Below are positions 1,958-15,240 of a DNA stretch of 64,000 nucleotides, one piece after another. The DNA lies in the IMG/VR virus record IMGVR_UViG_3300009873_000003, positions 1 to 64,000 of that record. One strand, 5' to 3'. Each line of letters starts with the position of its first letter. Position 1 is the first letter of the stretch. The translations under genes were made by a program, and so were the position numbers. The notes beneath the pieces were generated by a model. The model was not told the DNA's origin. It made no database searches and was given only the letters and a program-made list of their open reading frames with translations. The DNA comes from a virus (Duplodnaviria > Caudoviricetes).

Positions 1958-2070
1958 AACATAGCACCGATGAGTGTTGCTTACTTGACGCTTGGCCTAC
2001 GTTCTCTTGACGCTTGCCCAACGTTTGGTCTGGCGTTTAGCCTACGGTTTGAGCTTGCGGAACCTACGTT
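1958..2070 (-). promoter_or_regulatory. repeat-array promoter cassette P1
   Basis: CGTCAAGT-N19-TATGTT plus upstream CGTAGG boxes. Confidence 0.7.
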
Positions 2071-3686
2071 TTGTCAACAGTTTCGATAAATTCAAGCGTA
2101 GGGTAGGATTCTGGCAAGGTTGCGTCGATGATGAACAAATCTTCAAGGGTTCTCGTAATGCCGACGTAGAGCAAATTTCGTGCTTCTATTCGTTTGGCGA
2201 TTGGAATTTCTGTGTTGACAATATCGGCGTAGATAATGTCAACGTGCAACAAGAAAATGCGTTTCGCTTCTTTGCCTTTTGAGCGATGGTACGTGCAAAG
2301 TGTGATGCTTTTCTCGTCATCGGCATAGATAGTTTCAAGGAACTGGATGAAGTCGAGTTGACTTCGCTTGCTGAGGTAGAAGTTATAATAGAGCGTGAAC
2401 ACTTCTAGTTCGTAGGCGAGACGTCGGGCTTTGTGATGATTTGGGCCTTTCGTCTTTTCAATTTCCGCTACTTCAGCCTTGATGATTCGGTCAAGTTCTA
2501 CCACCTTATTCTCTGGTTTGTCGTGTAGCTTGAAAAGACAACTTTTGCAAATCTCAATATATTCTGAACCAAGCAAACGCACTGTCTTTCCAAGCGTTAG
2601 CAAGTCGATGCTAAACTTTTCGAGACTTAAAACGGACTTTGCCTTGTGACGATTGAAACGTCCCAGAACCCAGTCACCATTCCGTAACTCCTTCATCATG
2701 GCCTTGTTCAAACTGATGGACTGAAGCGAACCTGGTTTCTTCGACCACGAGACAATGTTCCGGTCAAGTCCTGACGTGCGCAAATAGGCTGTGATAGCTT
2801 CAGGTAGGCGGAAAGAGACGCTATAGCTGATGCTGACGGCATTGAAGTGTCTTGACAATTGCTTAAGCGCCGCTGGCGAAGTGTTATTCCAGATGTGAAT
2901 TGTCTGGTTGCTATCGCCAAGCAGAATCACTTGTTTAGCCTGTTGTGCAATCAACCCGTACATTGCCTGCATTAACGGGTTACTGTCCTGACTTTCATCA
3001 ATTGCCAAAATCTCTGGCTTGATGATGTGACGCTGTACTTCTGGTATGATGACAGGCAGATAGAGCATTCCAAGAAAGTCCACTTGACCACGCAAAAGGA
3101 AGTAATGATTGACGATTTTTGTCAACACATTAATACCATGTCCAACAAATTCCATTCCGAATTGCGCATCAAAAAGTCGGTGAATTTTTGTGCAATCTGT
3201 ATAGTGGATGGCATTTAGCGCAATTTTTTCAACAACTTGTTTGATTTCTTGTAAGGCAATGTTGAACGGTATGTTCTCACCTTGAATGTAGAGGAGTTTA
3301 GGAATCTCTCTAATCAGGCCGAACTCTTGTTTGAGATATTGAAAAATTGCTTGTTCTGTTAGCTCTTCATGCACATGGGAGCGCACGATTTGACCATTGG
3401 GCAGCTTTTTGGCCTGCTTCTTGATTTCTTTAAGTTTAAGAAAGGTGCTGCAAGCCTTTAACCCATGCGCATGAAGCGTTGAGACTGAGCCATATTGAAA
3501 TTGCGTGATTAGTTCGCTAGCAAGGGCGCTGCTGAACATTAACGCAAGAAACGTGTCCTTCTGTAGAATGTTATCAATCATTTTCAGAATTGTCGATTTC
3601 CCGCCACCTGGGACAGCGTCTACTGAAATCGTCTTCCCCTGCTTGACAGCATCTATAATTGGAACTTGCGCTGGAATTGGCTGCAT
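2064..3686 (-). CDS. superfamily 1 (UvrD/Rep-like) DNA helicase
   Basis: Motifs AVPGGGKST, IDESQD, LGDSNQTI, SFRLP, TYHRSKGKE, LYVGITR. Confidence 0.9.
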   Translation of the reverse strand: MQPIPAQVPIIDAVKQGKTISVDAVPGGGKSTILKMIDNILQKDTFLALMFSSALASELITQFQYGSVSTLHAHGLKACSTFLKLKEIKKQAKKLPNGQIVRSHVHEELTEQAIFQYLKQEFGLIREIPKLLYIQGENIPFNIALQEIKQVVEKIALNAIHYTDCTKIHRLFDAQFGMEFVGHGINVLTKIVNHYFLLRGQVDFLGMLYLPVIIPEVQRHIIKPEILAIDESQDSNPLMQAMYGLIAQQAKQVILLGDSNQTIHIWNNTSPAALKQLSRHFNAVSISYSVSFRLPEAITAYLRTSGLDRNIVSWSKKPGSLQSISLNKAMMKELRNGDWVLGRFNRHKAKSVLSLEKFSIDLLTLGKTVRLLGSEYIEICKSCLFKLHDKPENKVVELDRIIKAEVAEIEKTKGPNHHKARRLAYELEVFTLYYNFYLSKRSQLDFIQFLETIYADDEKSITLCTYHRSKGKEAKRIFLLHVDIIYADIVNTEIPIAKRIEARNLLYVGITRTLEDLFIIDATLPESYPTLEFIETVDKT

Positions 3687-3707
3687 TTTAATTCCTCCTA
3701 ACCGATG

Positions 3708-3938
3708 TTAGCGATAGATGTATTCTTTATTCAAGGTGTAGCGTACCTTTAACGCTTTTGTTGCTAACAGCAGTTCAAGTAAACAAGCGTCAATTGAGCC
3801 ACCGTTGTAAAAGTAGTAGGCGAAGCCTCTTTGACCAACTGACCGATTTAGGAATTTTGCGAAGCGCCACATCTTAAAATTAAAAACTTTTTCATATTCC
3901 GGTTGAATGTCACAAACAATTAACATGGTACGTGTCAT
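3708..3938 (-). CDS. short isochorismatase/nicotinamidase-like protein, possibly internally deleted
   Basis: N-terminal LIVCDIQPEY motif; only 76 aa from MTRTM. Confidence 0.35.
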   Translation of the reverse strand: MTRTMLIVCDIQPEYEKVFNFKMWRFAKFLNRSVGQRGFAYYFYNGGSIDACLLELLLATKALKVRYTLNKEYIYR

Positions 3939-3981
3939 CTTTTTTTCTTTCTTTCTTAATGACTTCGTCAATCTACACGCA

Positions 3982-4404
3982 CTAAAACTTATAGAAGTAG
4001 ATGGCATCTTCGTAAGCGACGTATAATCTGTCATCGCCGATGAACTTATTGGCCGCATGAGCCAGATATTTTGCACCCTTCCAGGCTGGTGTACCTGGTG
4101 TGACGTTGCGTAGGCGGCTGATGTAACGCTGGTCTAACCGATTAATATCTTGTTTCCCCTGGCGTTTCCATTCTAGCGAATACAGCTTAAGTAAGGCTTT
4201 CGTGACTTTCGCACTCACGTTATCAACGCTGGTGTGTGTTAACGGTAAGGTGAGAATTAGGTTAACACCGAATTGCTCTGCTTCGATTATCGCCAGGTCA
4301 TTTTCAATTCTCACGCTGGCGAGGGGAAACTTTCGCTTAAGGAGGTCCAACGGGTTCTTGGTTACATAGGGTCTGTTTTTGACGTGAACTAAATAGTATT
4401 TCAT
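3982..4404 (-). CDS. hypothetical protein
   Basis: ORF coupled to the upstream gene by an ATGA overlap. Confidence 0.65.
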   Translation of the reverse strand: MKYYLVHVKNRPYVTKNPLDLLKRKFPLASVRIENDLAIIEAEQFGVNLILTLPLTHTSVDNVSAKVTKALLKLYSLEWKRQGKQDINRLDQRYISRLRNVTPGTPAWKGAKYLAHAANKFIGDDRLYVAYEDAIYFYKF

Positions 4405-4781
4405 ATGCACCATTCCGCTTGTTCATAACCTGGGATTTGGCGGATAGCCTCATCTAAGATTGATTCGGAATATAGCCAACCTAAACTTGTTTGATGGTTT
4501 TCGTCTTCACACGATTGATACTGCCAAGATAGGACTAATTTGACGATTGCAATAGCAGAGCGGCTAACGTTGTCCCTTTCGTAATGATAAAAGTGCGGAC
4601 TATCAATCAATGGCGTCTCAAATTGGGGATACTGGCTAGCCACGGATTTAATGTTCTGTAGTTTTAGCGCTTCACCAACGGCCTGTATTTCTCGTGGTGT
4701 TGGTTTGGTTAGTGTGCAATTTGCTGCCCAAAACTTAACCAACGCACTAATGTGTTTATCTGACAATAACATTACACTCAT
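4401..4781 (-). CDS. phage hypothetical protein
   Basis: Coupled ORF; NIKSV..Y and YQSCE motifs. Confidence 0.7.
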   Translation of the reverse strand: MSVMLLSDKHISALVKFWAANCTLTKPTPREIQAVGEALKLQNIKSVASQYPQFETPLIDSPHFYHYERDNVSRSAIAIVKLVLSWQYQSCEDENHQTSLGWLYSESILDEAIRQIPGYEQAEWCI

Positions 4782-5083
4782 TTCACACCTGCTTCTTTCT
4801 GCGCAGTCACAATATTATGATAAAGGTCAATCAAGTCACAATAGTGGTTGAACACGTCGGAATAACCAGAGGCGTGGCCCTCACTCTGTGCTTTTTCTTG
4901 CAAGACAAGGCGTACAGAGTGAGGGATAGTGACGCCAAGCTCTTCATCTGCATCTCGCCAGAATTCTTGGTCAAGGCGTTTCTGCTCGGCGTAGTAGGCT
5001 TGTCTTGCTAAGCGTAGAGCGTTAAGAGCATTCTCACTGATTTGTTTTTCTCGCTGCTGGCGTTCTGCTTTGGTCAATGGCAA
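4778..5083 (-). CDS. hypothetical protein
   Basis: ORF downstream of promoter P2. Confidence 0.65.
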   Translation of the reverse strand: MPLTKAERQQREKQISENALNALRLARQAYYAEQKRLDQEFWRDADEELGVTIPHSVRLVLQEKAQSEGHASGYSDVFNHYCDLIDLYHNIVTAQKEAGVK

Positions 5084-5161
5084 GTTGTCAATTTTCGCAA
5101 GTTCTATACGTTCTAGTTCGCGCTGACTTGGTACTTTTTCCGTCCTTTGTGTGATAACACT

Positions 5162-5271
5162 AGTTTAACATGTTTCGGGGTGGATAACTTGACGATTGCC
5201 CTACGTTTAGTCTGGCGTTTAGCCCACGGTTGAGCTTGCGAAACCTACGTTTAGTCTGGCGCTAGCCCACG
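5162..5271 (-). promoter_or_regulatory. repeat-array promoter cassette P2
   Basis: CGTAGGGCAATCGTCAAGT-N19-TAAACT with TG. Confidence 0.75.
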
Positions 5272-5336
5272 AGTTGTTTGACACCAGTTGAGCGGGTTGT
5301 GAGCGGTCAACCGTTTGCGAAGTTGCTCAAGTTTTG

Positions 5337-5915
5337 TCATAGGTCATCATCACTTTCTGCACCCTTGTGCACTTTAGTTCGTAGATAGAGTTGACTTTGA
5401 TTTCGGTTTACAGTGTTGAGCGTGTGACCTTGCTTCACGGATTTAAACACCTGGGTTAAATGCACACGCTTGTCAAATCGTTCGTTGGTCGAAAATTTAC
5501 ATCGCTTGAACAGTAATAGAGTTTTCTGGTTGTCTAGTTCCTTGACGGTTTGTGCTTGCTTCACGCAGTCAATCAACGCTTCCAAAACGCTGGTTTCGGC
5601 AATTAAATTGACTTTCTCAGGGCGAAGCATGAACGCATATTTGTCTAGTAAAGTTGGGTGCCAACCACCGTCAGGTGTTTCACTTTCTTGACTACTTTCA
5701 ATAATTGCGTCAGGTACGATTTTGTCAAGCGTGATTGCCGCACTGACGACACCGTTTTCTTTGAAACGTTCTGTGACAATTGTGCGAAATTTACCGTTGA
5801 TTAATTGAAGACGAAACGACAATCCAGAAAATTTGGGCATTTGTTCGGCCCACAGCTTGGCGTAAGCTTCAATCTCTTCAATGGTTTTGTCAGAAAATAG
5901 TTTAATCGTTGTCAT
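5337..5915 (-). CDS. hypothetical protein
   Basis: ORF with AAGGGGG RBS before MTTIK. Confidence 0.65.
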   Translation of the reverse strand: MTTIKLFSDKTIEEIEAYAKLWAEQMPKFSGLSFRLQLINGKFRTIVTERFKENGVVSAAITLDKIVPDAIIESSQESETPDGGWHPTLLDKYAFMLRPEKVNLIAETSVLEALIDCVKQAQTVKELDNQKTLLLFKRCKFSTNERFDKRVHLTQVFKSVKQGHTLNTVNRNQSQLYLRTKVHKGAESDDDL

Positions 5916-5932
5916 TTTGCCCCCTTTGTGAT

Positions 5933-6247
5933 TCACAATCCGAACAGGTTGATTGTATATCGACCAGCCAGAACGTTACCAAATCGTTTTTCTCTGTTCG
6001 GGGAATTGTGACTTGCTGGCCTGAGAATGTCACCAGCTTTCCATTTGTCGTCGTCGGCAATCAGAATAAAGCAGTAGGTGCTCTTGTTTTCTCGTGTGAC
6101 TTTGATATATTTTTTTAGAACAACGTAGGTAAGTCGTCCAGGGTAACGGGTGGTTGACGCTGGAAAATACGCATTGTATTTTTCCATATATAGCTTGCAG
6201 TAAGTTTCCACTGCTGAATCAAGTTCTGGAGAGATAGCAGTCACCAT
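5933..6247 (-). CDS. conserved phage hypothetical protein
   Basis: KKYIKV..YCFI..GDILRPAS..P..RFGN motif typical of phage early proteins. Confidence 0.7.
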   Translation of the reverse strand: MVTAISPELDSAVETYCKLYMEKYNAYFPASTTRYPGRLTYVVLKKYIKVTRENKSTYCFILIADDDKWKAGDILRPASHNSPNREKRFGNVLAGRYTINLFGL

Positions 6248-6293
6248 TGTTTTCCCCTTTCGTTAGCTGTCTGGCAACAACCACACTTAGACT

Positions 6294-6401
6294 AGTTTAT
6301 CATACAACCGTAGGGCTTACTTGACGTTTGCCCTACGGCTTGAGCTTGCGAAACCTACGGCTTGAGCTTGCGAAACCTACGGCTTGAGCTTGCGAAACCT
6401 A
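6294..6401 (-). promoter_or_regulatory. repeat-array promoter cassette P3 with three 22-bp tandem repeats
   Basis: CGTCAAGT-N19-TAAACT; CCTACGGCTTGAGCTTGCGAAA at 6332, 6354 and 6376. Confidence 0.75.
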
Positions 6402-6677
6402 TGCGTCAAGTTCACCTTTCATAAATTGCGCAGCGTAGGTGAACGCTTTTTCTTCGTCTTTTGTCTGTAACATGTACGTACCCTCACCAACATGGTTGCG
6501 ACCTATGACAATCCAGTGATTAACACCGTAACTTGGTTTGCGGATTGACACGGAACCCTTACCGAACGTGTTATTGTAGTACGCATCACTGTGCTTACGA
6601 AGGAAAAATTCAACGTCGTTGCACATGACAAATTCAATTTTTTCGTCCATCACGGTTTGATAGTAACGTTTTAACAT
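6399..6677 (-). CDS. hypothetical protein
   Basis: GGGAGA RBS; stop codon lies inside the repeat. Confidence 0.7.
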   Translation of the reverse strand: MLKRYYQTVMDEKIEFVMCNDVEFFLRKHSDAYYNNTFGKGSVSIRKPSYGVNHWIVIGRNHVGEGTYMLQTKDEEKAFTYAAQFMKGELDA

Positions 6678-6729
6678 TTTTTCTCCCTTATTGCTGGTGT
6701 CAGACAGCTACATTGCTGGTGTCAGACAG

Positions 6730-7104
6730 CTACAGCACAATAGTGTAAATGTTTGATAGACATAGGACAATCGGCCATTCCGGATAGAGTTCCTTAATGC
6801 GTTTGGCTCTTAGCAGCAGCCGTGAACCCAGCATCGGTCCAAAAGAAGTTAACTTGTGGTTAACAATGAGCGTGTGTTCTTCGGCCCCTTTGTGAAATGC
6901 CTTGATAAGTTGGTTCATCTCACGTTCTAACACGTAGTCGAGCTGTTGATAGTTCCCCTTGCGCAATTGCTGTTTCGCAGTATAGTCACCGACTAGAAAC
7001 AGACGTTTGTGCTCACCGTGACGTTGTTCAATGACAAAGCGATAAGGAATGTAGAGGAGGTGCAGTGTGTTATTGTAGTTCCGAATTTTATTTTTTAGTC
7101 CCAT
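6730..7104 (-). CDS. hypothetical protein
   Basis: ORF coupled to the 7106 gene. Confidence 0.6.
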   Translation of the reverse strand: MGLKNKIRNYNNTLHLLYIPYRFVIEQRHGEHKRLFLVGDYTAKQQLRKGNYQQLDYVLEREMNQLIKAFHKGAEEHTLIVNHKLTSFGPMLGSRLLLRAKRIKELYPEWPIVLCLSNIYTIVL

Positions 7105-7105
7105 G

Positions 7106-7552
7106 TTACACCAGTGTCTTTCTAGTTTGTGTAAATTGCACGTCATCTACCGTGTAGACAATCGACCACAATCCGCATGATTCCATAATGTTTTTGATGA
7201 AAGTATGAACCGATGAGCGTTCTTTGTTATAAAATACCGGCATCGGGTCAGGAACGTGTGTAATGTTGCCTGTTACGGATTCACATTTCAGAATTTTGAC
7301 AACCCGCTCACCTGTGCAAGCCCTTACATATAACTGATTCCAAGCATGGCTAATCGCAGAGTCACACTCACGGCTTGAGCCTGTCGCAACGTTTTGAGCA
7401 CTAGTGCTAGGGTAACGAACGATGACTAACGATTGCATACCACTGAAGGCATGGTTATCAAACCGCCAAGGGTGGTCAATGTTCGCTAGAAACTCGTTAT
7501 AGCGGTTGATTGTGTTTTGCAAATCCTTTGGCGTAAATCGTGGTTTGCTCAT
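7106..7552 (-). CDS. hypothetical protein
   Basis: GAGGA RBS; downstream of P4. Confidence 0.7.
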   Translation of the reverse strand: MSKPRFTPKDLQNTINRYNEFLANIDHPWRFDNHAFSGMQSLVIVRYPSTSAQNVATGSSRECDSAISHAWNQLYVRACTGERVVKILKCESVTGNITHVPDPMPVFYNKERSSVHTFIKNIMESCGLWSIVYTVDDVQFTQTRKTLV

Positions 7553-7591
7553 TTTTTCCTCTTGTTTCCTCTTGTCAAGTGCGTTAGAACT

Positions 7592-7657
7592 ATTCTAACG
7601 CACTTTGCGCTGGTTAACTTGACGATTGCCCTACGTTTTGTCTGGCGTTAGCCTACG
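7592..7657 (-). promoter_or_regulatory. repeat-array promoter cassette P4
   Basis: CGTAGGGCAATCGTCAAGT-N19-TAGAAT. Confidence 0.75.
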
Positions 7658-7971
7658 ACTACTAAGCGATTGGCGTAATCCACTCTGGTGTCTTCAATCA
7701 TAGCTTGAGCTAACTTGTTAACCTTGACAAGCATACCAAGATAAACGGTGTCAAGCTCAAATTTGAATTTCAATAAGTCATGCTGTGCAAAAGGGGCAAA
7801 GCAGCCATTCATTGAGTCAAAATGCTCAAGATAGATTGTCCCACCGTCCCATCGTAGGCGCAGAACCCAGCCAGTATTTTTAATCGTAAAGTCGATTGCC
7901 GTGGTATCCGCATCACTTAGTTGTTTAAGCAACTTGATTGCACTCGTTTTGGTGTTTCTGTAGCTCATCAT
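7648..7971 (-). CDS. hypothetical protein
   Basis: Coupled ORF ending VG* inside the repeat. Confidence 0.65.
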   Translation of the reverse strand: MMSYRNTKTSAIKLLKQLSDADTTAIDFTIKNTGWVLRLRWDGGTIYLEHFDSMNGCFAPFAQHDLLKFKFELDTVYLGMLVKVNKLAQAMIEDTRVDYANRLVVVG

Positions 7972-8570
7972 CGTAATTCCCCTCTCACAGCATATACTTT
8001 TTCCAAACCTTCGACCATATTTTTGGCCTCATAGAGACCACAGCCAAGCATACCACGAAGCACTTTAACGGCACTTATACGCTTTCTCGCTGCAACAAAT
8101 TCGTAAACTTCTGCAAGCCTTGGGTCAATTGGGTGGTTCGGATGTTGGTAAATGAAAGCGTATGTTAACGTGTCAACAATGTATAGTTGATTTTTGTATG
8201 CCACCAACGTTTTCTGCATTTGATACAAGTTGTACAATCGAGCGATGTACTTGGCGCTTAATGGCTTGTTGTTCGGTAGCAGTTTCGCCAAACGTTTACG
8301 ATAGGTGATAGTCTTATCATGCTGCTTAGAATAGTGGACAGTTTTTTGCTGGTCTGCGTCCATCATAGCAAGTAGGTCTTTAATAGCAGTTGGGAAGGTG
8401 ACAGGAACTAAGCGATAGTAGATGAACCGACGTTCTTTGCCATCGTCCCAACGGTTGATTGCATTGACGGTCGTGTCAGGGTGTTTGGCCTTAAGATAGT
8501 CGGCGACTGGCCCTTCAACAACTTTCATGCTTGGCGTGCGACCTTCTTTGTTAACCAAGTAGTACATCAT
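7968..8570 (-). CDS. protein with C-terminal ribosomal L7/L12-like domain
   Basis: RISAVKVLRGMLGCGLYEAKNMVE resembles the L12 CTD KIxVIKxVRxxTGLGLKEAKxLVE. Confidence 0.65.
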   Translation of the reverse strand: MMYYLVNKEGRTPSMKVVEGPVADYLKAKHPDTTVNAINRWDDGKERRFIYYRLVPVTFPTAIKDLLAMMDADQQKTVHYSKQHDKTITYRKRLAKLLPNNKPLSAKYIARLYNLYQMQKTLVAYKNQLYIVDTLTYAFIYQHPNHPIDPRLAEVYEFVAARKRISAVKVLRGMLGCGLYEAKNMVEGLEKVYAVRGELR

Positions 8571-8611
8571 AGTTGTTTCCTTTTCTTTCTGTTCTGTTTT
8601 GCTGATGTCTT

Positions 8612-8676
8612 AGTTTATCACGTTATGCTTGGCGTTACTTGACGTTTACCCTACGTTTGTCTGGCGTTAGCCTACG
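8612..8676 (-). promoter_or_regulatory. repeat-array promoter cassette P5
   Basis: CGTAGGGTAAACGTCAAGT-N19-TAAACT with TG. Confidence 0.75.
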
Positions 8677-9257
8677 TTTTCCGCACGGTTTAGGTTGTGC
8701 AGATTAGCCAAGGCGTTTTCTGCACTGCTGGTCCGATAGGTAGAGAGAAAATCGTTAAAAGTGTCAATTGAATCTGCACGGTTTGATTTAACAAAATTAT
8801 ATTCTGCTGCTGTTAAACCTAAATCTGCACCATAGTCAAGCTCATGGCTGCTTAGAAACAGTAGCATCAGACGTGCAGGGAGTTGACAGATATGAACGTT
8901 TTGCAAGATTGCCTTACTAGCATCAGTAATGGCTACTTGTCCTGCGCCAGAATCTATCATGTGTTCATCACTATTGTCACGTTCAACCAAGTCATCGGCA
9001 ATTTCGTATTCTAGCACTACAATCGTTGCCGTATTGCGCTTGATAGCCGACAAATAGCCTGATTCTAACGCACGTTGCACAAGCACTTGCTGTCGATATT
9101 CCGCACTGTCAGTGCTGTCAAAGTCAGGAAAAAAGTCATCAACCCAAAAGTAAACATTGTCATAGTTGCTTTGCGACCAAATTCGTTCTGTATCTTGCCA
9201 ACCATTAGTTAGGATATCTAACGCTGAGCTCATGTCTGTTCCATGATACACACGCAT
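8667..9257 (-). CDS. possible ADP-ribosyltransferase-fold protein
   Basis: N-terminal YHGT..A..I...G and downstream VYF motif. Confidence 0.45.
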   Translation of the reverse strand: MRVYHGTDMSSALDILTNGWQDTERIWSQSNYDNVYFWVDDFFPDFDSTDSAEYRQQVLVQRALESGYLSAIKRNTATIVVLEYEIADDLVERDNSDEHMIDSGAGQVAITDASKAILQNVHICQLPARLMLLFLSSHELDYGADLGLTAAEYNFVKSNRADSIDTFNDFLSTYRTSSAENALANLHNLNRAENVG

Positions 9258-9277
9258 GATTACCTGCTTTCTGGTGT

Positions 9278-9979
9278 CTAACCAAGCTTAAGGGTTTTAA
9301 AACTTTCCACAACTTGAGTTACAGTCACTTCGTTTTCAGCGAACATTTCATGTAATTGCGGTAGAATGTTTCGATTATTTTTCCGCAATGCGTTCGCTTT
9401 TTCCCAGGTGGCGGCCTGTAATGCACTTGGTATGAAATTTTTTTCGATTGCAACAGTCTCGTATACTTGTTGTACAACTTCCAGACCGTTGTCCTTTAAC
9501 GCATATGTCCCTGGCAAGTCACCTAGTCCCAGGACAATGCTCATCGCAAGACTGTCAACCACTACAGGGTTAATCTGGTCAGGGTTAAGAATATTTTGGT
9601 AGAATGGCCCAGTCTTTACGCCGAACTTGAATGGTTGGTTGCGTAGGCAAGCGTAGACATTTGTCATCGCTGCTTTAGTGTGTACGCTAATTTCTTGCCC
9701 ATCTTTCCAAGCAACTAGTACACGGTACGCACGACGTTTGTTTAGTTCCCATTCCGTGAGCGGAGAAAGTAGAGCGGTCACTGCGCACACTGTTTCCAAA
9801 GAATAATCAAGTTCTTGCGCTACTGACTTTGCCCAAACGTTAGCATCATAGTACCATGACGACGGGGCAACATTTGAAGCAAATTCACGTAATGTTGCTA
9901 CAGCATTGTTAAAGTCTACGTCTGTTTTACGAACTGTTACCTTAATACTGTTGTTGCTTAGTTGACGAAAAATTTTCAT
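9278..9979 (-). CDS. phage protein of a family resembling HhH-GPD DNA glycosylases
   Basis: WY..A, ALLSP..W..N, KT..FY.NI, VVVD and LQAATW motifs. Confidence 0.5.
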   Translation of the reverse strand: MKIFRQLSNNSIKVTVRKTDVDFNNAVATLREFASNVAPSSWYYDANVWAKSVAQELDYSLETVCAVTALLSPLTEWELNKRRAYRVLVAWKDGQEISVHTKAAMTNVYACLRNQPFKFGVKTGPFYQNILNPDQINPVVVDSLAMSIVLGLGDLPGTYALKDNGLEVVQQVYETVAIEKNFIPSALQAATWEKANALRKNNRNILPQLHEMFAENEVTVTQVVESFKTLKLG

Positions 9980-10043
9980 TTTTTCCCCTCCCTTGACTGT
10001 TGCGTGAAAGATTGACAATCTGTTGTGAAGTTGATATGATACG

Positions 10044-10193
10044 TTACACTAGGTTAAGAAAACGTCGCCATTGATTGATTAACTTGATGCGTCGCACAAA
10101 ACGACGTCGGCGAATTGCTGAGTTATGTTTTGCCTTGCAACTCTCAAAGGCGGGCAGGTTTTCAAACCGTTCTAATTGCGTAGGCGTTAGCAT
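10044..10193 (-). CDS. 49-aa Arg-rich peptide
   Basis: AGGAG RBS; MLTPTQLERFENLPAFESCKAKHNSAIRRRRFVRRIKLINQWRRFLNLV. Confidence 0.55.
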   Translation of the reverse strand: MLTPTQLERFENLPAFESCKAKHNSAIRRRRFVRRIKLINQWRRFLNLV

Positions 10194-10423
10194 GATAGTT
10201 TCTCCTGTTTAGACTTCTGAAGAATTTAATCAAGGTTAATCGAAAATTTAATCAAGGTTAAATAGTAGGTTGCGACCTTTGGGGCGAAAAGTGGGTCAAA
10301 CGTACGCTATAACGTACGTTTTTTGCTGTTAAGTGGGACAAAGTTGTTGTTTTTTGCTGTTTTTTACCAACTTTGCCCTAAATTTTTACATTTGACTAAT
10401 TGTTATGTTTGTTCGCTAGTGCT

Positions 10424-10498
10424 AGTCTAACATATGGGCAAACGTTTAACTTGACGCTTGCCCTACGCTTGCCCTACGTTTTTGTGGTGTTAGCCTAC
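10424..10498 (-). promoter_or_regulatory. repeat-array promoter cassette P6
   Basis: CGTAGGGCAAGCGTCAAGT-N19-TAGACT with TG. Confidence 0.75.
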
Positions 10499-10693
10499 TT
10501 TTTCCCTTACTTGCATAGTAGCGTTAATAAATGGCTCAAGTAATGTCATAGAATAGACTGAAAAGAATGGCTTGCCCGACAAACTTATAGCAGCTCACTT
10601 TCTTTGATTTAATTAATGTCAAACCATTGCATAGCTGGTTGGCATCAGCAATAGCTGGTTGGCATCAGACAGCTATGCAAACGTTTGAATTAA

Positions 10694-11074
10694 TTAAACA
10701 ATGTTCTGTTTCCCCCAGTAATGTTGTTCAAACAGTTTAGCGAAGTTTTTAAGTGTCCTATCGATATTGAATTGCACACCGGCATGACGACGCATGTGTA
10801 GATTAGTCATGATAGTATACGCTAGCACGTTGCCGTTATCTTTAGTTTTGAAAACTAATGGCGTACAGTCGTTATTATCAATTTTAGGTGCGTAGATTTT
10901 AAGCGTAAAGATTGCGCCAGGAACTTCACTATAGCGCATAATGGCGCAATATAAGCAGTTTTCACCGTTTTTATCGCACATGACGAAAGCAGCAAAGTTG
11001 CACACAACAAACTCGTTAAAAAGTTTAGCACATGTAGTGCGTTTGCGGGTTTCGCCTACAAATTCATATAACAT
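10694..11074 (-). CDS. hypothetical protein
   Basis: Start moved to MLYEF because the P7 -10 box overlaps the listed start. Confidence 0.6.
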   Translation of the reverse strand: MLYEFVGETRKRTTCAKLFNEFVVCNFAAFVMCDKNGENCLYCAIMRYSEVPGAIFTLKIYAPKIDNNDCTPLVFKTKDNGNVLAYTIMTNLHMRRHAGVQFNIDRTLKNFAKLFEQHYWGKQNIV

Positions 11075-11118
11075 ATTATGCGCCTTTCTTTCTGAAGCTT
11101 CTGTTGACTGATAATCTA

Positions 11119-11194
11119 AGTCTAACACATGGGCAAACGTCTTACTTGACGTTTGCCCTACGTTTTTGTGGCGTTAGCCTACGTTTGCCCCACG
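11119..11194 (-). promoter_or_regulatory. repeat-array promoter cassette P7
   Basis: CGTAGGGCAAACGTCAAGT-N19-TAGACT with TG. Confidence 0.75.
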
Positions 11195-11197
11195 TTT

Positions 11198-11779
11198 CTA
11201 ATCACGCAATTGCAACATTGCGTTGACAAATTCATCGACGTTTAACGCAACGTAACAACAGAATTCCGGTTCGCCAGTGATATTCATGCTAGCTACTGCC
11301 TTGTCGTTGACGTAGAATGAAATCCGGTTACAGTAGACGTCAAACTTACAGTTATAGTAATCAGCATACCGACAGTGAACAACGACGTGACTAAAATGCT
11401 TTGCTTGTTCACGGATTCCGGCAACTAGCGCAGCAAATTCAGCATAGTCTTTCACACTGGTAGAATAGGTCAGCGTTTCTGGCGGTTTATAGAGAAAGTC
11501 AAACAGCGCAGGAAGGATAACGTCAACCAAACAAATTTGGTCATCTGACAGCCCTTGACAGATATTTAAGACAGGATAGGCTAGCAGTTCAGAAGTATCA
11601 ACACTGAACAATAGGCCAGACGTTGCGAATTTTTTATACGTACTAGTCACAGTGAACCAGTCATCGTGAGATTGTACTTTAACAGTGTAGTCGTCTAGAA
11701 TACTTGGCATAGTGGCAAGTTTTTCTTTGCCGTATCTAGTTCGGATAAAAGTTTGCTTAATTTCTTCGTGTAAGGACAT
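11198..11779 (-). CDS. hypothetical protein
   Basis: AAGGTG RBS before MSLHEE. Confidence 0.65.
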   Translation of the reverse strand: MSLHEEIKQTFIRTRYGKEKLATMPSILDDYTVKVQSHDDWFTVTSTYKKFATSGLLFSVDTSELLAYPVLNICQGLSDDQICLVDVILPALFDFLYKPPETLTYSTSVKDYAEFAALVAGIREQAKHFSHVVVHCRYADYYNCKFDVYCNRISFYVNDKAVASMNITGEPEFCCYVALNVDEFVNAMLQLRD

Positions 11780-11854
11780 TTTTTCACCTTTTGTTGATGA
11801 GATGTTGCACAAACGTTGCGCTAACTTTGGGCAAACTTTGTGCTAATTGTTGCG

Positions 11855-12085
11855 TTAGTCCTGTGTTGGTTGACAATAGCTGCTAAGAATATCGTCAACG
11901 CTAAGGGCATCGAGACTACCGAAAGCATAGTCTAAATTTTGCGCAGTGTATTGCGCAAGTGAATCGTTGGATATGCGATATTCACCATCGCATTCTTCCG
12001 CTTTAACCTTGCCTTGGCGTACCATGCTAAGCATTTTATCATACGATACACCTAACGCTTTTGCTGATTGTCTGACAGTTAACAT
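11855..12085 (-). CDS. excisionase/BldC-like (HTH_17, MerR-like) DNA-binding protein
   Basis: MLTVRQSAKALGVSYDKMLSMVRQGKVKA...GEYRI signature; GGGG RBS. Confidence 0.8.
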   Translation of the reverse strand: MLTVRQSAKALGVSYDKMLSMVRQGKVKAEECDGEYRISNDSLAQYTAQNLDYAFGSLDALSVDDILSSYCQPTQD

Positions 12086-12164
12086 AGTTTCCCCATTAGA
12101 ATTAGTACGGCAATAACCCAAAGAATGTAATGAGCAGTTGATAGATTTGATGGCGTAGTCATTG

Positions 12165-12377
12165 TTAAAAACTCGATTTCCAAAAGCTGAATTGCAAATC
12201 AGAAAGCTCATTATTAATGTTGAAAAGTTGTGCGGCTTGCTTCTGTTGTTCAGTAAGCATGAAACGCACATCACCGCTAACCGCTTGCAATTGTGCTGAC
12301 ATCAGTGCGTTTTGCATCAAGAGATAGGCAATAATACCGGCAACAAGCAACTGTTTGGCGAGATTAATCAATTTCAC
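12165..12377 (-). CDS. small membrane-anchored protein
   Basis: Hydrophobic N-terminus followed by Q-rich coil. Confidence 0.45.
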   Translation of the reverse strand: MKLINLAKQLLVAGIIAYLLMQNALMSAQLQAVSGDVRFMLTEQQKQAAQLFNINNELSDLQFSFWKSSF

Positions 12378-12822
12378 CTTTAACCTACTTTCTTAACAGT
12401 GGCGTAGCAGCGTTAGCTGCTTACATTGTCTAGATTGACATGATAGCTGTTTGGCATCAGCTATACGTTTAGTCTGGCGTTAGCCAAACAGCTATCATGG
12501 CAATCCAAACATTGCAAGTGCTTGGCAATCTTGCGTTAAGCATCGACGATTTGAATCGTTCGTGGGACAAGTCAACCACGCAATACTTAACGCAATTAAG
12601 TTGTTAAGGTACGACACCCAACACACTAGACCAGAAACCGCAATCTCTGTTTTATTGTCTAGTCAAGCTTGTGAACTTCTGTTTCTTTACTTTCGGTTTG
12701 GTGGGATACCTGTAATCCTAACAGGTTAGGTCAATCTTGTTTGAACTTTCGGTGGCGGTGGGTTGATACGTTTGCGTTACCTTTCTGCGGTTTGCCTTGC
12801 GTTTGTTTCTTTCGATAGCACT

Positions 12823-12898
12823 AGTTTACCACGGTTTGGCCCAAACGCATCCCTACGCAATCCCTACGCTATACCTACGTTGGTCTGATGTTAGCCTA
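12823..12898 (-). promoter_or_regulatory. lead promoter cassette P0 (variant)
   Basis: TGG-TAAACT; CCTACG boxes at 12852, 12863, 12874 and partial at 12895; lacks the TTGACG box. Confidence 0.65.
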
Positions 12899-13244
12899 TA
12901 CTCCTTTACTTAGTTGCGCTATGTATATATTTATAACGTCATAAACAGATGTTCTACTAAACTGGTAGGCATCGGCAATAGCTGTTAGACATCGGCGTTC
13001 GCTGTTAGACATCGGCAAGATAATAAAAGTGTAATAATTTTTAGAAAATTTTGGTGTTTGCAGTATTGAAAAATGACAACATCCTTTTTCTGACAGCGTT
13101 CATAGGGGCAGGTAGGTAGGTTGCGTGTTTGGTGATGTTATGAAAAGTCATTGACCCGATTCTAAAATCAATTCTATGTTCTAGAATTTTACCCTAACGT
13201 CATATAAACTATAGTCATCTTTACCAACACAATCGAGGTCTAAC

Positions 13245-13481
13245 ATGTCACGAAACGCTTTGCCACCGTCGCATTATGAATTAAAACTTCACAATAAATA
13301 TAATCAAACCTACGTCATCCTTCCCCAAGAAAGTTGGCGTGGCGTTAGGACAAACGTCGCAATTCATTGCGACAAGCACCAAACTAAACGCTTTGTTTGG
13401 TTGCAGAAAATCTTTAATGGCCGGAATTCAATTTGGCCTTGCCGTCAATGTTTCCTGGATTCATTGCGACCCCCCTACTGA
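13245..13481 (+). CDS. small Zn-binding protein (DUF723-like)
   Basis: V.I.CDKH ... CRQC; GAGG RBS. Confidence 0.5.
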   Translation: MSRNALPPSHYELKLHNKYNQTYVILPQESWRGVRTNVAIHCDKHQTKRFVWLQKIFNGRNSIWPCRQCFLDSLRPPY

Positions 13482-13506: not shown

Positions 13507-13546
13507 CAAAACAGCAAGTTTCAAGCATGATAAACTTGCTGTTTTG
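13507..13546 (+). terminator. hairpin terminator
   Basis: CAAAACAGCAAGTTT/AAACTTGCTGTTTTG. Confidence 0.6.
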
Positions 13547-13888
13547 TGCTTTGCTATTGGATGCTGATGTTGGTTTGGTCGGACTTGCGCCAAGCTTCGT
13601 CACTGCGTGACAGACATTGGCGCAACGAAAGACAACGCTAACATTCATAGTCAGGAAGACTAGAATGTTAGCGTCTGAGAAGGCTAGGCCGAGAACGTTA
13701 GCGTGTTCATGTTCACACGAGGGACGACACTGTGAGAAAGCTTTTAGAACGTTTTTAGAGCGCTTTTCTCGGCTAAAATCGAGAAAGTTCTCGCTAAGCT
13801 GAGAATCTTAGCGAGAAACATCGCTTTCCAACACTTTCCAACAACCCTCGGCGTTCATCGGCGAACATCCGTCAAATTAATGGTATTG

Positions 13889-14152
13889 TCATTCACGTTT
13901 TAGCCCATGTTGTTGATAGAAGTTGTCGAGCATTCGGTCAAATTCGATTCTAGCAAGTTTATTGAGTTCTTGTTTAACGTAGGCTGGGTCAAGTTCAACT
14001 TCTTGCAATAGTTCGTCAAGTAGTTCATGCTTACGACTTAGTTCAGCATTTTGCTTCTTGGTAGCGTTTAATGTATTTGTAAATTGTTGGTACGCTAACA
14101 GCAAGTTCTGAAGCCAGGTTAGATTTATTAATTTGGTTAACGTCGTGCGCAT
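13889..14152 (-). CDS. hypothetical protein (start uncertain)
   Basis: Overlaps the end of the 14043 gene. Confidence 0.35.
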   Translation of the reverse strand: MRTTLTKLINLTWLQNLLLAYQQFTNTLNATKKQNAELSRKHELLDELLQEVELDPAYVKQELNKLARIEFDRMLDNFYQQHGLKRE

Positions 14153-14858
14153 ATCGTTTCTCCATTAGTGCTAGAAAAGTTGCATAGGATTCTGACTTGA
14201 TTGGTGTTGCGCTATTGCCGATGTCAGTGTTTCGGGTTGTTGGTTCAACTGGTTCAAGCGGTTTCGCTTCACTTTTGAAAGTCTTTTTAGTTTCTTCTGG
14301 CATCAAGAGTGACAGTGCTTCATCTGTTTTATAGCGAACGATTTCGACGAGTCTTTCTTTCAGATAGGTGTTGTCGATTTCGATGCTATCTAAGTCAGTT
14401 GAGAGTGCAATCTTTTCTGTGATTCGTTCACTAAAGCCTTCGTTGAAGAGTTTCAACTTACGTTTTTTCTCGCTTAAGTGAAACGTTGACATGGCATACG
14501 CTAGCCCAAATTCCATTAAAGTCGGGAAAATGAGGCCGAAGAACGCTGCTAAGTAGATGTTCAGGCCATGTGACAGATAGGCAAGACATTGCAACACACC
14601 AGACGTCAGAGCGAAAAGTAAGGTCACGGTGAGCATGGTGTTGAACGCTGTCTTGTCTGTTCTATCGACTTTGCTTAGCAACATACTGACAGAGACTAGC
14701 CCAAACCCAATGCCAGAGCCAAGAATAACACTAAAGTAGATGCCATGACCATGTGCTGACAGATAGGTCGTCACGTTAAACACTGACGCAATGGCAAAGC
14801 TAATCATCACGGTTTCAACTAGTCTTTCGTTCGTTAAATGTTTTTTAAGTTCTTTCAT
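14043..14858 (-). CDS. 4-TM membrane protein with coiled coil and C-terminal HTH (Spd/DUF2637-like architecture)
   Basis: Four hydrophobic segments; INKSNLASELAVSVPTIYKYIKR HTH. Confidence 0.65.
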   Translation of the reverse strand: MKELKKHLTNERLVETVMISFAIASVFNVTTYLSAHGHGIYFSVILGSGIGFGLVSVSMLLSKVDRTDKTAFNTMLTVTLLFALTSGVLQCLAYLSHGLNIYLAAFFGLIFPTLMEFGLAYAMSTFHLSEKKRKLKLFNEGFSERITEKIALSTDLDSIEIDNTYLKERLVEIVRYKTDEALSLLMPEETKKTFKSEAKPLEPVEPTTRNTDIGNSATPIKSESYATFLALMEKRYAHDVNQINKSNLASELAVSVPTIYKYIKRYQEAKC

Positions 14859-14944: not shown

Positions 14945-14984
14945 CGTTTCACGCAGTAGCCTTGGTTAATGTTTTGCCTTAACT

Positions 14985-15240
14985 ACTGTTGAATTTTCGC
15001 CTGTTAAATTTTAGCCTTTAGAGTTTAGCCTGTTAAATTTTAGCCTTTAAATTTTAGCCTTTAGAGTTTAGCCTTTAGAGTTTAGCCTTTAGAGTTTAGC
15101 CTTTAAACCATAAACCCCTTTAAAATTTAACCCCTTAAATTTAACCCCTTAAATTTAACTCTTTAAAATTTAACCCTTTAAAATTTAACCCTTTAAAATT
15201 TAACCCTTTAAAATTTAACCTTTTAAAATTTTAGTCTCTA
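14985..15240. repeat. AT-rich 14-15-bp tandem repeat tract in two subfamilies
   Basis: TTTAGCCTTTAGAG-type units, then TTTAACCCTTTAAAA-type units. Confidence 0.9.

Follow-up and report, generated by a model that had tools for sequence, protein, structure and literature searches.

Cassettes in the Early Region of Phage W

Phage W is an uncultured phage of 114 kb, represented by a linear IMG/VR record of 114,335 bp (IMGVR_UViG_3300009873_000003, estimated 92% complete), and judging from its promoter sequences its likely hosts are Anaerolineae (Chloroflexota). The window analysed here is the first 64 kb of this record. Between positions 1958 and 11194 it holds seven intergenic cassettes on the minus strand, each composed of the core CGTAGGGCAAnCGTCAAGT, a spacer of 19 nt (N19) and a TAnnnT hexamer, and the present work is concerned with what these cassettes are and what might read them. 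Two small proteins encoded nearby, one with a helix-turn-helix (HTH) domain of the HTH_17 family and one with a zinc ribbon, are considered below as possible readers. The cassettes are as follows.

11119..11194, minus strand: cassette 1, boxes CGTGGGGCAAA, CGTAGGCTAA, CGCCACAAAAA and CGTAGGGCAAA, then CGTCAAGT, N19 and TGtTAGACT; upstream of the gene at 10694-11128
10424..10500, minus strand: cassette 2, two CGTAGGGCAAG boxes, CGTCAAGT, N19 and TGtTAGACT; followed by a leader of ~230 nt, a 49-aa open reading frame (ORF) and a DUF7178 gene
8612..8676, minus strand: cassette 3, a CGTAGGCTAACGCCAGACAAA unit, CGTAGGGTAAA, CGTCAAGT, N19 and TGaTAAACT; upstream of the gene at 7968-8570
7592..7657, minus strand: cassette 4, CGTAGGCTAACGCCAGACAAAA, CGTAGGGCAAT, CGTCAAGT, N19 and TAGAAT, with a 12-bp inverted repeat bracketing the −10; upstream of the gene at 7106-7552
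6294..6403, minus strand: cassette 5, three to four 22-bp units of CGTAGGTTTCGCAAGCTCAAGC, then CGTAGGGCAAA, CGTCAAGT, N19 and TGaTAAACT; upstream of the gene at 5933-6247
5162..5271, minus strand: cassette 6, four upstream units, CGTAGGGCAAT, CGTCAAGT, N19 and TGtTAAACT; heads an operon that ends with a UvrD-type helicase gene (2064-3686)
1958..2068, minus strand: cassette 7, a duplicated composite (CGTTGGGCAAGCGTCAAGA and CGTAGGCCAAGCGTCAAGT), N19 and TGcTATGTT; starts at the helicase stop codon

The 19-mer cores begin at 2001, 5205, 6337, 7635, 8655, 10467 and 11162 on the minus strand, the low coordinates of the corresponding hexamers are 1958, 5162, 6294, 7592, 8612, 10424 and 11119, and the spacer measures exactly 19 nt in each. 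With up to three mismatches allowed, a motif search returned 8 matches, where shuffles would lead one to expect 0.02. Further cassette copies were not found elsewhere in the 114,335-bp genome, also under relaxed criteria, and the motif is restricted to the early region of W. The other promoters of W are of the ordinary TTGACA type.

Positions such as −39 or −61 are given here on the assumption that transcription starts 7 nt past the −10 hexamer. On this numbering the promoter module comprises CGTAG boxes at −61 and −50, CGTCAAGT from −39 to −32, the exact 19-nt spacer and an extended −10. In W, CGTAGG boxes start at −50, −61 and −72 upstream of CGTCAAGT, and the upstream arrays extend in an 11/22-bp register with units of CGTAGGCTAACGCCAGACAAAA or CGTAGGTTTCGCAAGCTCAAGC. 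The array units may be read as a tandem composite of two boxes, CGTAGGnnAAn and then CG(T/C)CA(A/G)(G/A). Six cassettes and the lead promoter of the region have a TG at −15/−14, and the seventh cassette, at 7635, has G at −14 only. When a TTGACA-like −35 was sought at 16-18 bp spacing, the best match was 2/6 in all seven. Downstream of every cassette there is a ribosome-binding site with a start codon, mostly within about 100 nt; the cassette at 10467 has the leader of ~230 nt.

A sequence-only reading of this DNA had reported the seven cassettes at these minus-strand coordinates with their exact spacing, an extended TG in most, no canonical −35, upstream hexamers recurring every 10-11 or 21-22 bp, three lead-promoter boxes exactly 11 bp apart and ordinary TTGACA-type promoters in the rest of the window. 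As observation it is correct in every detail checked.

Several upstream genes terminate within the arrays (2064-2068, 6399-6403, 7648-7651 and 8667-8670). The stop codon of the helicase gene and that of the gene at 6399-6677 are the TAG within a CGTAGG or CATAGG box, and the TAA of GGCTAACG serves as the stop codon for two other genes. In a close relative (L009) a different gene lies behind the homologous cassette, which is consistent with cassette-mediated shuffling. Two further elements were considered for the arrays and dropped, namely a divergent promoter from the inverted TTGAC inside ACTTGACG, which has no usable −10 at 16-18 bp, and an A/T-rich UP element, the boxes not being A/T-rich.

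Conservation of the Module in Related Phages

Megablast of the region against the INPHARED phages gave no near relative among deposited phages. Scanning of IMG/VR with the exact motif returned no relatives, and no related locus was found there with the HTH protein, the helicase or the zinc-ribbon alignment as queries. Relatives were reached by a search of 5.8 billion proteins followed by retrieval of the contigs encoding the matches. Homologues of the UvrD-type helicase are 66-68% identical on metagenome contigs of 109-131 kb, and 45% identical or lower on others. Five relative lineages were obtained in this way: A, an ENA scaffold of 131 kb; B, two JGI contigs; and C, D and E, Logan contigs of 117, 34 and 10 kb, respectively, of which E was reached through a homologue of the zinc-ribbon protein. 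Per relative, 10-31 kb of sequence was examined, and absences reported below for A, C, D and E apply to that sequence.

All five lineages carry the module on the early-gene strand, with 3 copies on the short E contig, 12 in D and 16 in C, and the motif and its fixed spacing are thus conserved in six phage lineages including W. Forty unique cassettes were pooled from W, A, B and C, and the shared positions described here were not used for their selection. In the box at −50, C, G, T and A are each present in 37-40 of the 40, the fifth base being G in 30 and T in 10, and CGTAG recurs at −61 in about 33. The −15/−14 TG was observed in 37 cassettes and A at −9 in 39; TTAAAC follows CGTCAAGT, and a weak tATC is seen near +1. 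No cassette of the 40 exceeds 2/6 for a TTGACA-like −35 at 16-18 bp. In the relatives the extended −10 is near consensus, TGnTATAAT or TGnTAGAAT.

CGTCAAG[T/C/A] was also counted without bias on the early-gene strand in all six phages. A −10-like hexamer lies near 54 of the sites, and in 50 of these 54 the spacing is exactly 19 nt; among the remaining spacings are one of 20 nt and two of 18 nt. The spacer sequence is not conserved and yet its length is fixed; therefore the register is kept by selection, and a selected register points to physical coupling of whatever reads CGTCAAGT with the RNA polymerase (RNAP) at the −10.

Ten of the 40 cassettes also contain a perfect inverted repeat of 8-15 bp, non-conserved in sequence, which brackets the −10 (1.3% in mismatched controls). 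Its 5′ arm falls in the spacer, and its 3′ arm covers about +2 to +20. Such repeats are frequent in C (L015/L018), occur also in B (L013) and are present once in the window (7592-7630). RNA hairpins formed on read-through and DNA cruciforms are both possibilities.

The Same Promoter at a Host Small RNA Gene

The pattern CGTAG-N3-AA-N-CGTCAAGT-N19-TAnnnT, with 18 specified bases, was used to scan one genome per prokaryote species (596 Gb). At least 120 contigs matched, against about 17 expected by chance. Among the 80 matches listed all but one are metagenome-assembled genomes of Chloroflexota, with one match per contig, and most of them carry the label of Anaerolineae-type lineages (Anaerolineaceae, Villigracilis, Longilinea, Leptolinea, Pelolinea and others). 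The host loci examined were L023-L142 (e.g. L084:2448-2590:+), L158 and L159. At 113 distinct host loci the −61 box, for which the pattern did not select, reads CGTAGGG in 97-109, and the −15/−14 TG is present in 85-91. The host promoter matches the phage architecture base for base: in phages and hosts alike the boxes start at −61, −50 and −39, as direct repeats with a period of 10-11 bp of which the proximal one lies over the −35 position. The sequence-only reading had taken the cassettes for a phage-specific promoter class, which is not supported, since the identical architecture stands before a small RNA (sRNA) gene in at least 113 Chloroflexota genomes.

The host module drives a conserved, predicted sRNA of about 65 nt that is CU-rich and starts 7-14 nt past the hexamer. 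It contains AAGGGCGAYUUC, the pyrimidine tract UCUUCU(U)CUCCUCCUU, which is invariant, and a hairpin of 10 bp that has UCGGCGU as its loop and shows covariation at 9 of its 10 pairs. The pyrimidine tract resembles the 3′ end of 16S rRNA (anti-Shine-Dalgarno). No Rfam family matched the RNA, and literature searches for the motif and for sRNA promoters of Anaerolineae returned nothing relevant. The neighbours are housekeeping genes in partly conserved synteny, including a divergent ogt-like methyltransferase gene (44 of 113), era (in about a quarter of the loci), a tyrA-like prephenate dehydrogenase gene and a gene for a GIY-YIG protein, and some of the loci lie on contigs of up to 4.4 Mb. The housekeeping neighbours and large contigs indicate that the sRNA is a chromosomal host gene and not phage contamination.

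In five large host genomes CGTCAAGT-N19-TAnnnT is no commoner than a reversed-pattern control, and the known sRNA locus is among the matches in each. Within one host family the strict pattern was found in 20 of 41 genomes with zero control matches, and phylum-wide in 9 of 301, so the module marks a subgroup. Copies per genome number 1-3, usually one. One complete host chromosome has three sRNA paralogues, and in two of them the box pair is located 22 bp further upstream (−83/−72) with CGTCAAGC-N19-(−10) unchanged, which means that helical phase is kept. These paralogues reveal the promoter-proximal element as a fixed core and the boxes as an upstream site that is movable by whole helical turns.

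A different arrangement was seen in host genome G004, where three CGTAGG boxes stand directly ahead of a canonical TTGACT-17-TATATT promoter (L160:2596-2660), downstream of a gene for an extracytoplasmic function (ECF) sigma factor and upstream of one for a peptide-binding protein of an ATP-binding cassette transporter. The host regulon may extend to this site.

Proposed Mechanism

We propose, with a probability of about 0.55, that the cassettes are early-gene promoters built on the architecture of the host sRNA promoter and read by a host factor, a dedicated activator of the class II type being favoured. Since the module is present in host genomes without the phage, a host-encoded reader is the simplest assumption, and from the distribution of the motif recognition is most likely host-encoded. 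Host RNAP would bind the cassettes through an extended −10 of the sigma-A type (TGnTAnnnT); the sigma-A holoenzyme is favoured because the −10 and the TG look like housekeeping-type elements and the other promoters of W are of the TTGACA type. The −35 would be substituted by a composite upstream element, namely the near-invariant CGTCAAGT together with CGTAGG-type boxes every 11 bp, i.e., one helical turn. A dedicated host activator would occupy the phased boxes on one face of the helix, and its promoter-proximal site would be located where region 4 of sigma normally sits, allowing a class II-like contact with RNAP as for PhoB at pho boxes. The phage family would have multiplied this host module, to 7 copies in W and 3-16 in the relatives, and thereby placed its early region under a host circuit. 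We infer that the cassettes are active as promoters, that the factor activates rather than represses and what kind of protein it is.

Several points weigh against this proposal. A repressor would fit the positions of the boxes equally well. When the genes beside the 113 host loci were clustered, only housekeeping genes emerged and no regulator was linked to the sRNA locus. The near-consensus extended −10 of the relatives could fire factor-free, in which case the boxes might modulate and not enable transcription. Finally, the host assignment itself derives from the shared promoter motif.

A more specific version would be a dedicated host circuit with 1-3 CU-rich, anti-Shine-Dalgarno-like sRNAs as its only detectable targets, taken over by an entire family of large Anaerolineae phages as an early switch. 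We regard this version as tentative, possible rather than probable. If it is true, infection would be coupled to the signal that induces the sRNA, e.g., slow growth or translational silencing, and the 7-16 sites per phage genome copy would titrate the factor off the host sRNA.

Alternative Readers of the Cassettes

The main rival to a host activator is a host alternative sigma factor, group 2/3-like, that would read CGTCAAGT as a −35-type element 19 bp from the extended −10, leaving the boxes as a separate activating or architectural site. The fixed and bipartite spacing (N19 in 50 of the 54 sites) is in line with it, as is the constancy of CGTCAAG[T/C]-N19-(−10) in host paralogues whose boxes have shifted by 22 bp, and the element lies exactly at the binding position of sigma region 4. 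Nevertheless, the −10 and the TG resemble housekeeping-sigma elements, a detectable regulon of 1-3 sRNA genes per genome would be unusual for an alternative sigma, and a 19-bp spacer is at the edge of what the sigma-70 family uses. On balance we consider an alternative sigma unlikely.

A factor supplied by the phage was also considered. The best phage-side candidate, if such a factor is involved, is the zinc-ribbon protein.

13245..13481, plus strand: gene for a CxxH...CxxC zinc-ribbon protein of 78 aa, divergent from the lead promoter; possible phage-side regulator

Under this explanation a phage protein other than HTH_17, for example the zinc-ribbon protein, would activate the cassettes, and the host sRNA promoter would respond only on infection, as a tripwire. 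The gene is divergent from the lead region in all five lineages where the junction was examined, with 44-71% identity (63-71% in A-C and 44% in E). The family is tiny, with 15 representatives in 1.8 billion proteins, so far only in these metagenomic phage relatives, and language-model features liken the protein to the DUF723 and DUF4379 zinc-ribbon modules. DNA binding is putative, and the AlphaFold2 (AF2) model, with a predicted local distance difference test (pLDDT) score of 62, is too poor for structural comparison. A sample of 81 genomes from the class to which one motif-bearing host genome belongs yielded no member of the zinc-ribbon family, which hence cannot explain the host promoter unless that promoter senses infection. 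Across the host family that was sampled, promoter and sRNA are common, usually single-copy and beside housekeeping genes, as fits a self-contained host circuit. Activation by the zinc-ribbon protein thus appears quite unlikely.

The zinc-ribbon gene is monocistronic with its own terminator hairpin (13508-13550) and among the small genes of the region it is the best conserved; relative A carries a degenerate second copy inside the leader on the opposite strand. Promoters for a phage sigma factor or a single-subunit RNAP were dropped, as no such genes are detectable in W: domain searches of its genome detected no sigma region 2 or 4 and no OmpR-type (Trans_reg_C), T7-RNAP, Ogr/Delta, MotA or AsiA domain.

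The cassettes could also be ordinary factor-free extended −10 promoters whose repeats serve recombination, by gene shuffling of the PeSL kind, or titration of a host protein. The near-consensus TGnTATAAT of the relatives would suit this, and so would the genes that abut or end within the arrays and the close relative with a different gene behind a homologous cassette. Yet the exact 19-nt register and the 11-bp phasing are kept in over 50 promoters of the phages and over 110 of the hosts, which points to coupling with RNAP, and recombination by itself would not account for the persistence of the element at a host gene present in single copy. This explanation is very unlikely in our view.

The HTH_17 protein is the regulator to which the sequence-only reading had assigned control of the cassettes.

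11855..12085, minus strand: HTH_17 (Xis/BldC-fold) gene, 76 aa, third ORF of the lead operon; accessory gene

The best reading of the gene gives 76 aa from 12085, with translational coupling to a 27-aa ORF. A long leader and two small ORFs separate it from the lead promoter, which is about 740 nt upstream. Its Pfam HTH_17 score is 24.8-26.8 bits, approximately at the cut-off. In the AF2 model, with a pLDDT of about 90 for residues 1-50, the protein is predicted to adopt a MerR-type winged-helix fold, with Pukovnik Xis (root-mean-square deviation 1.2 Å), BldC (1.3 Å), RdfS and RacA as structural matches at weak Foldseek E-values of 0.01-0.1; the Xis/BldC-like label given earlier is in keeping with this model. 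Homologues were found only in two close relatives on short contigs and in lineage B (33% identity). A profile hidden Markov model detected no orthologue in the sequence examined of A, C, D and E, all of which have cassettes, and for A and C that sequence reaches from the divergent zinc-ribbon gene to beyond the helicase. Relatives that keep the arrays without the HTH gene had been named beforehand as evidence against control by this protein, and these four are of that kind within the sequence covered. Five motif-bearing host genomes contain no close homologue and gave weak generic matches only (best E 0.01); the best of these, a membrane-type SPFH+HTH_17 protein (E ~0.01-0.07), was judged generic and set aside. 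The DNA motif is nearly invariant where the helicases are only 45% identical, and the HTH_17 protein is patchy and fast-evolving. That it binds the phased repeats cooperatively and switches the cassettes on is highly improbable and not supported: its fold matches proteins that bind repeated sites and its gene belongs to the lead operon of W and comes first after the lead promoter in B, but no orthologue was found in the sequence examined of A, C, D and E or in the five host genomes searched, all of which have the motif, and the W and B proteins share 33% identity while the motif hardly varies. Nor did the analysis turn up anything that bears on the filament formation proposed for it.

Lead Promoter, Leader and Other Repeats

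The boxes are not confined to the seven cassettes. Two further features lie upstream of the lead operon.

12823..12898, minus strand: lead promoter variant, three CGTAGG boxes 11 bp apart, CGTTTGGGCCAAACC and TGgTAAACT; no CGTCAAGT
12958..13013, unstranded: upstream of the lead region, three 20-bp repeats of the GCCGATGTCTAACAGC type from a second repeat family, specific to the phage

The lead promoter boxes are at 12879, 12868 and 12857 and the TGgTAAACT at 12828-12823, in a register unlike that of the cassettes. Three boxes followed by CGnnTnnGCCAAACC and TGnTAnACT are found at the lead promoter of W and at two promoters of C. At the lead position of A and B a canonical TTGACA-17-TATACT promoter is preceded by two boxes (−72/−61). 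The boxes therefore also decorate entry promoters, with a different register in W and C.

From the lead promoter to the first ORF extends a leader of about 440 nt (12380-12820, minus strand), in which nucleotide blocks (AAGCTTGACTAGACA... and TAACAACTTAATTGCG...) are conserved in A and C, and a hairpin surrounds a CGTAGG-type unit at 12440-12500. The sequence could represent a structured leader or a small RNA. The second repeat family, with units of 20-22 bp of the GCCGATGTCTAACAGC or GCTGATGCCAAMCAGC type, is clustered ahead of the lead region and has other copies at a small number of intergenic sites, at 285-307, 6690-6733 (6690/6712), 10631-10673 (10631/10651) and 12443-12465, and relatives carry different repeats at the lead-region position, e.g., three of CCAATAGCCAGA in B. 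As a guess, the family might provide operators for a lineage-specific regulator such as the HTH_17 protein.

Two observations concern other parts of the window. At the extreme left end of the record (20-84) there are 4-5 tandem copies of the 13-bp unit TCTAGTTAATCTA. A gene at 14043-14858 (minus strand) encodes a protein of 271 aa, for which about four hydrophobic helices are predicted at the N-terminus and which has an HTH at the C-terminus (weak Pfam matches, residues 237-269); the gene has a near-consensus TTGACT-17-TATAAT promoter and adjoins at least 12 tandem repeats of 14-15 bp (14974-15240).

Significance

What is new here is the motif and its regulon in Anaerolineae, the way in which one host sRNA promoter has been multiplied over an early region and the fact that a deep phage clade has conserved the arrangement. 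A previously undescribed promoter architecture and its regulon have been defined from sequence alone in a class that is plentiful in sludge and sediments and for which genetics hardly exists. The work also uncovers a conserved sRNA without Rfam match whose CUCCUCCUU tract is like the 16S 3′ end. In practical terms, the three phased boxes offer a concrete DNA bait for the regulator, and the shared motif offers a host assignment for metagenomic phages of 110-130 kb that are otherwise unplaceable.

Comparison with Known Systems

In its geometry the module would work most like pho-box and other class II promoters. In the pho-box promoters of E. coli, such as pstS and phoA, 11-bp direct repeats replace the −35 ahead of a normal −10, and the activator contacts sigma region 4. 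Shared with the class II promoters of the PhoB/OmpR family are the 11-bp repeats over the −35, the normal −10 and the in-phase upstream extension. The sequences, CGTAGGGTAAn and CGTCAAGT, are however unrelated to the pho box, and the proximal element ends 19 bp from the −10 as compared with about 10 bp in the pho box. No Trans_reg_C protein was detected in the genome of W, and the likeness to PhoB systems is one of promoter geometry.

The middle promoters of T4 are likewise a dedicated class with a sigma-70-type −10, no −35 and a substitute element at a fixed distance. Here the element occupies −39 to −32 and its spacer is 19 nt long, as compared with about 12 nt for the MotA box, the centre of which is at −30. 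Moreover, W has no MotA_activ or AsiA match and the same element occurs in uninfected host genomes, so that the reader is probably host-encoded, in contrast to T4.

With the PeSL cassettes of T4-like phages the module shares repeated, near-identical early promoters before most small early ORFs, mosaic genes behind them and, in a quarter of the cassettes, a stem-loop-forming inverted repeat. A PeSL, however, is a canonical sigma-70 promoter followed by a stem-loop, whereas the cassettes have no −35, their inverted repeat brackets the −10 and the module is common to a host gene. Direct-repeat arrays at about one helical turn also recall the sites that BldC, Xis and TorI bind head-to-tail, and the fold of these proteins is predicted for the HTH_17 protein of W, but arrays are present in relatives and host genomes in which, within the sequence covered, no orthologue of the HTH_17 gene was found.

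Host regulator sites are known from other phages, i.e., NtcA and PhoB boxes in cyanophages and LexA boxes in temperate phages. As in those phages, host transcription-factor sites would stand before phage genes and tie their expression to a host circuit. The co-option proposed here would be more extreme than in the NtcA, PhoB or LexA cases: a whole early region, with 7-16 promoters, uses the complete module that in the host serves 1-3 sRNA genes.

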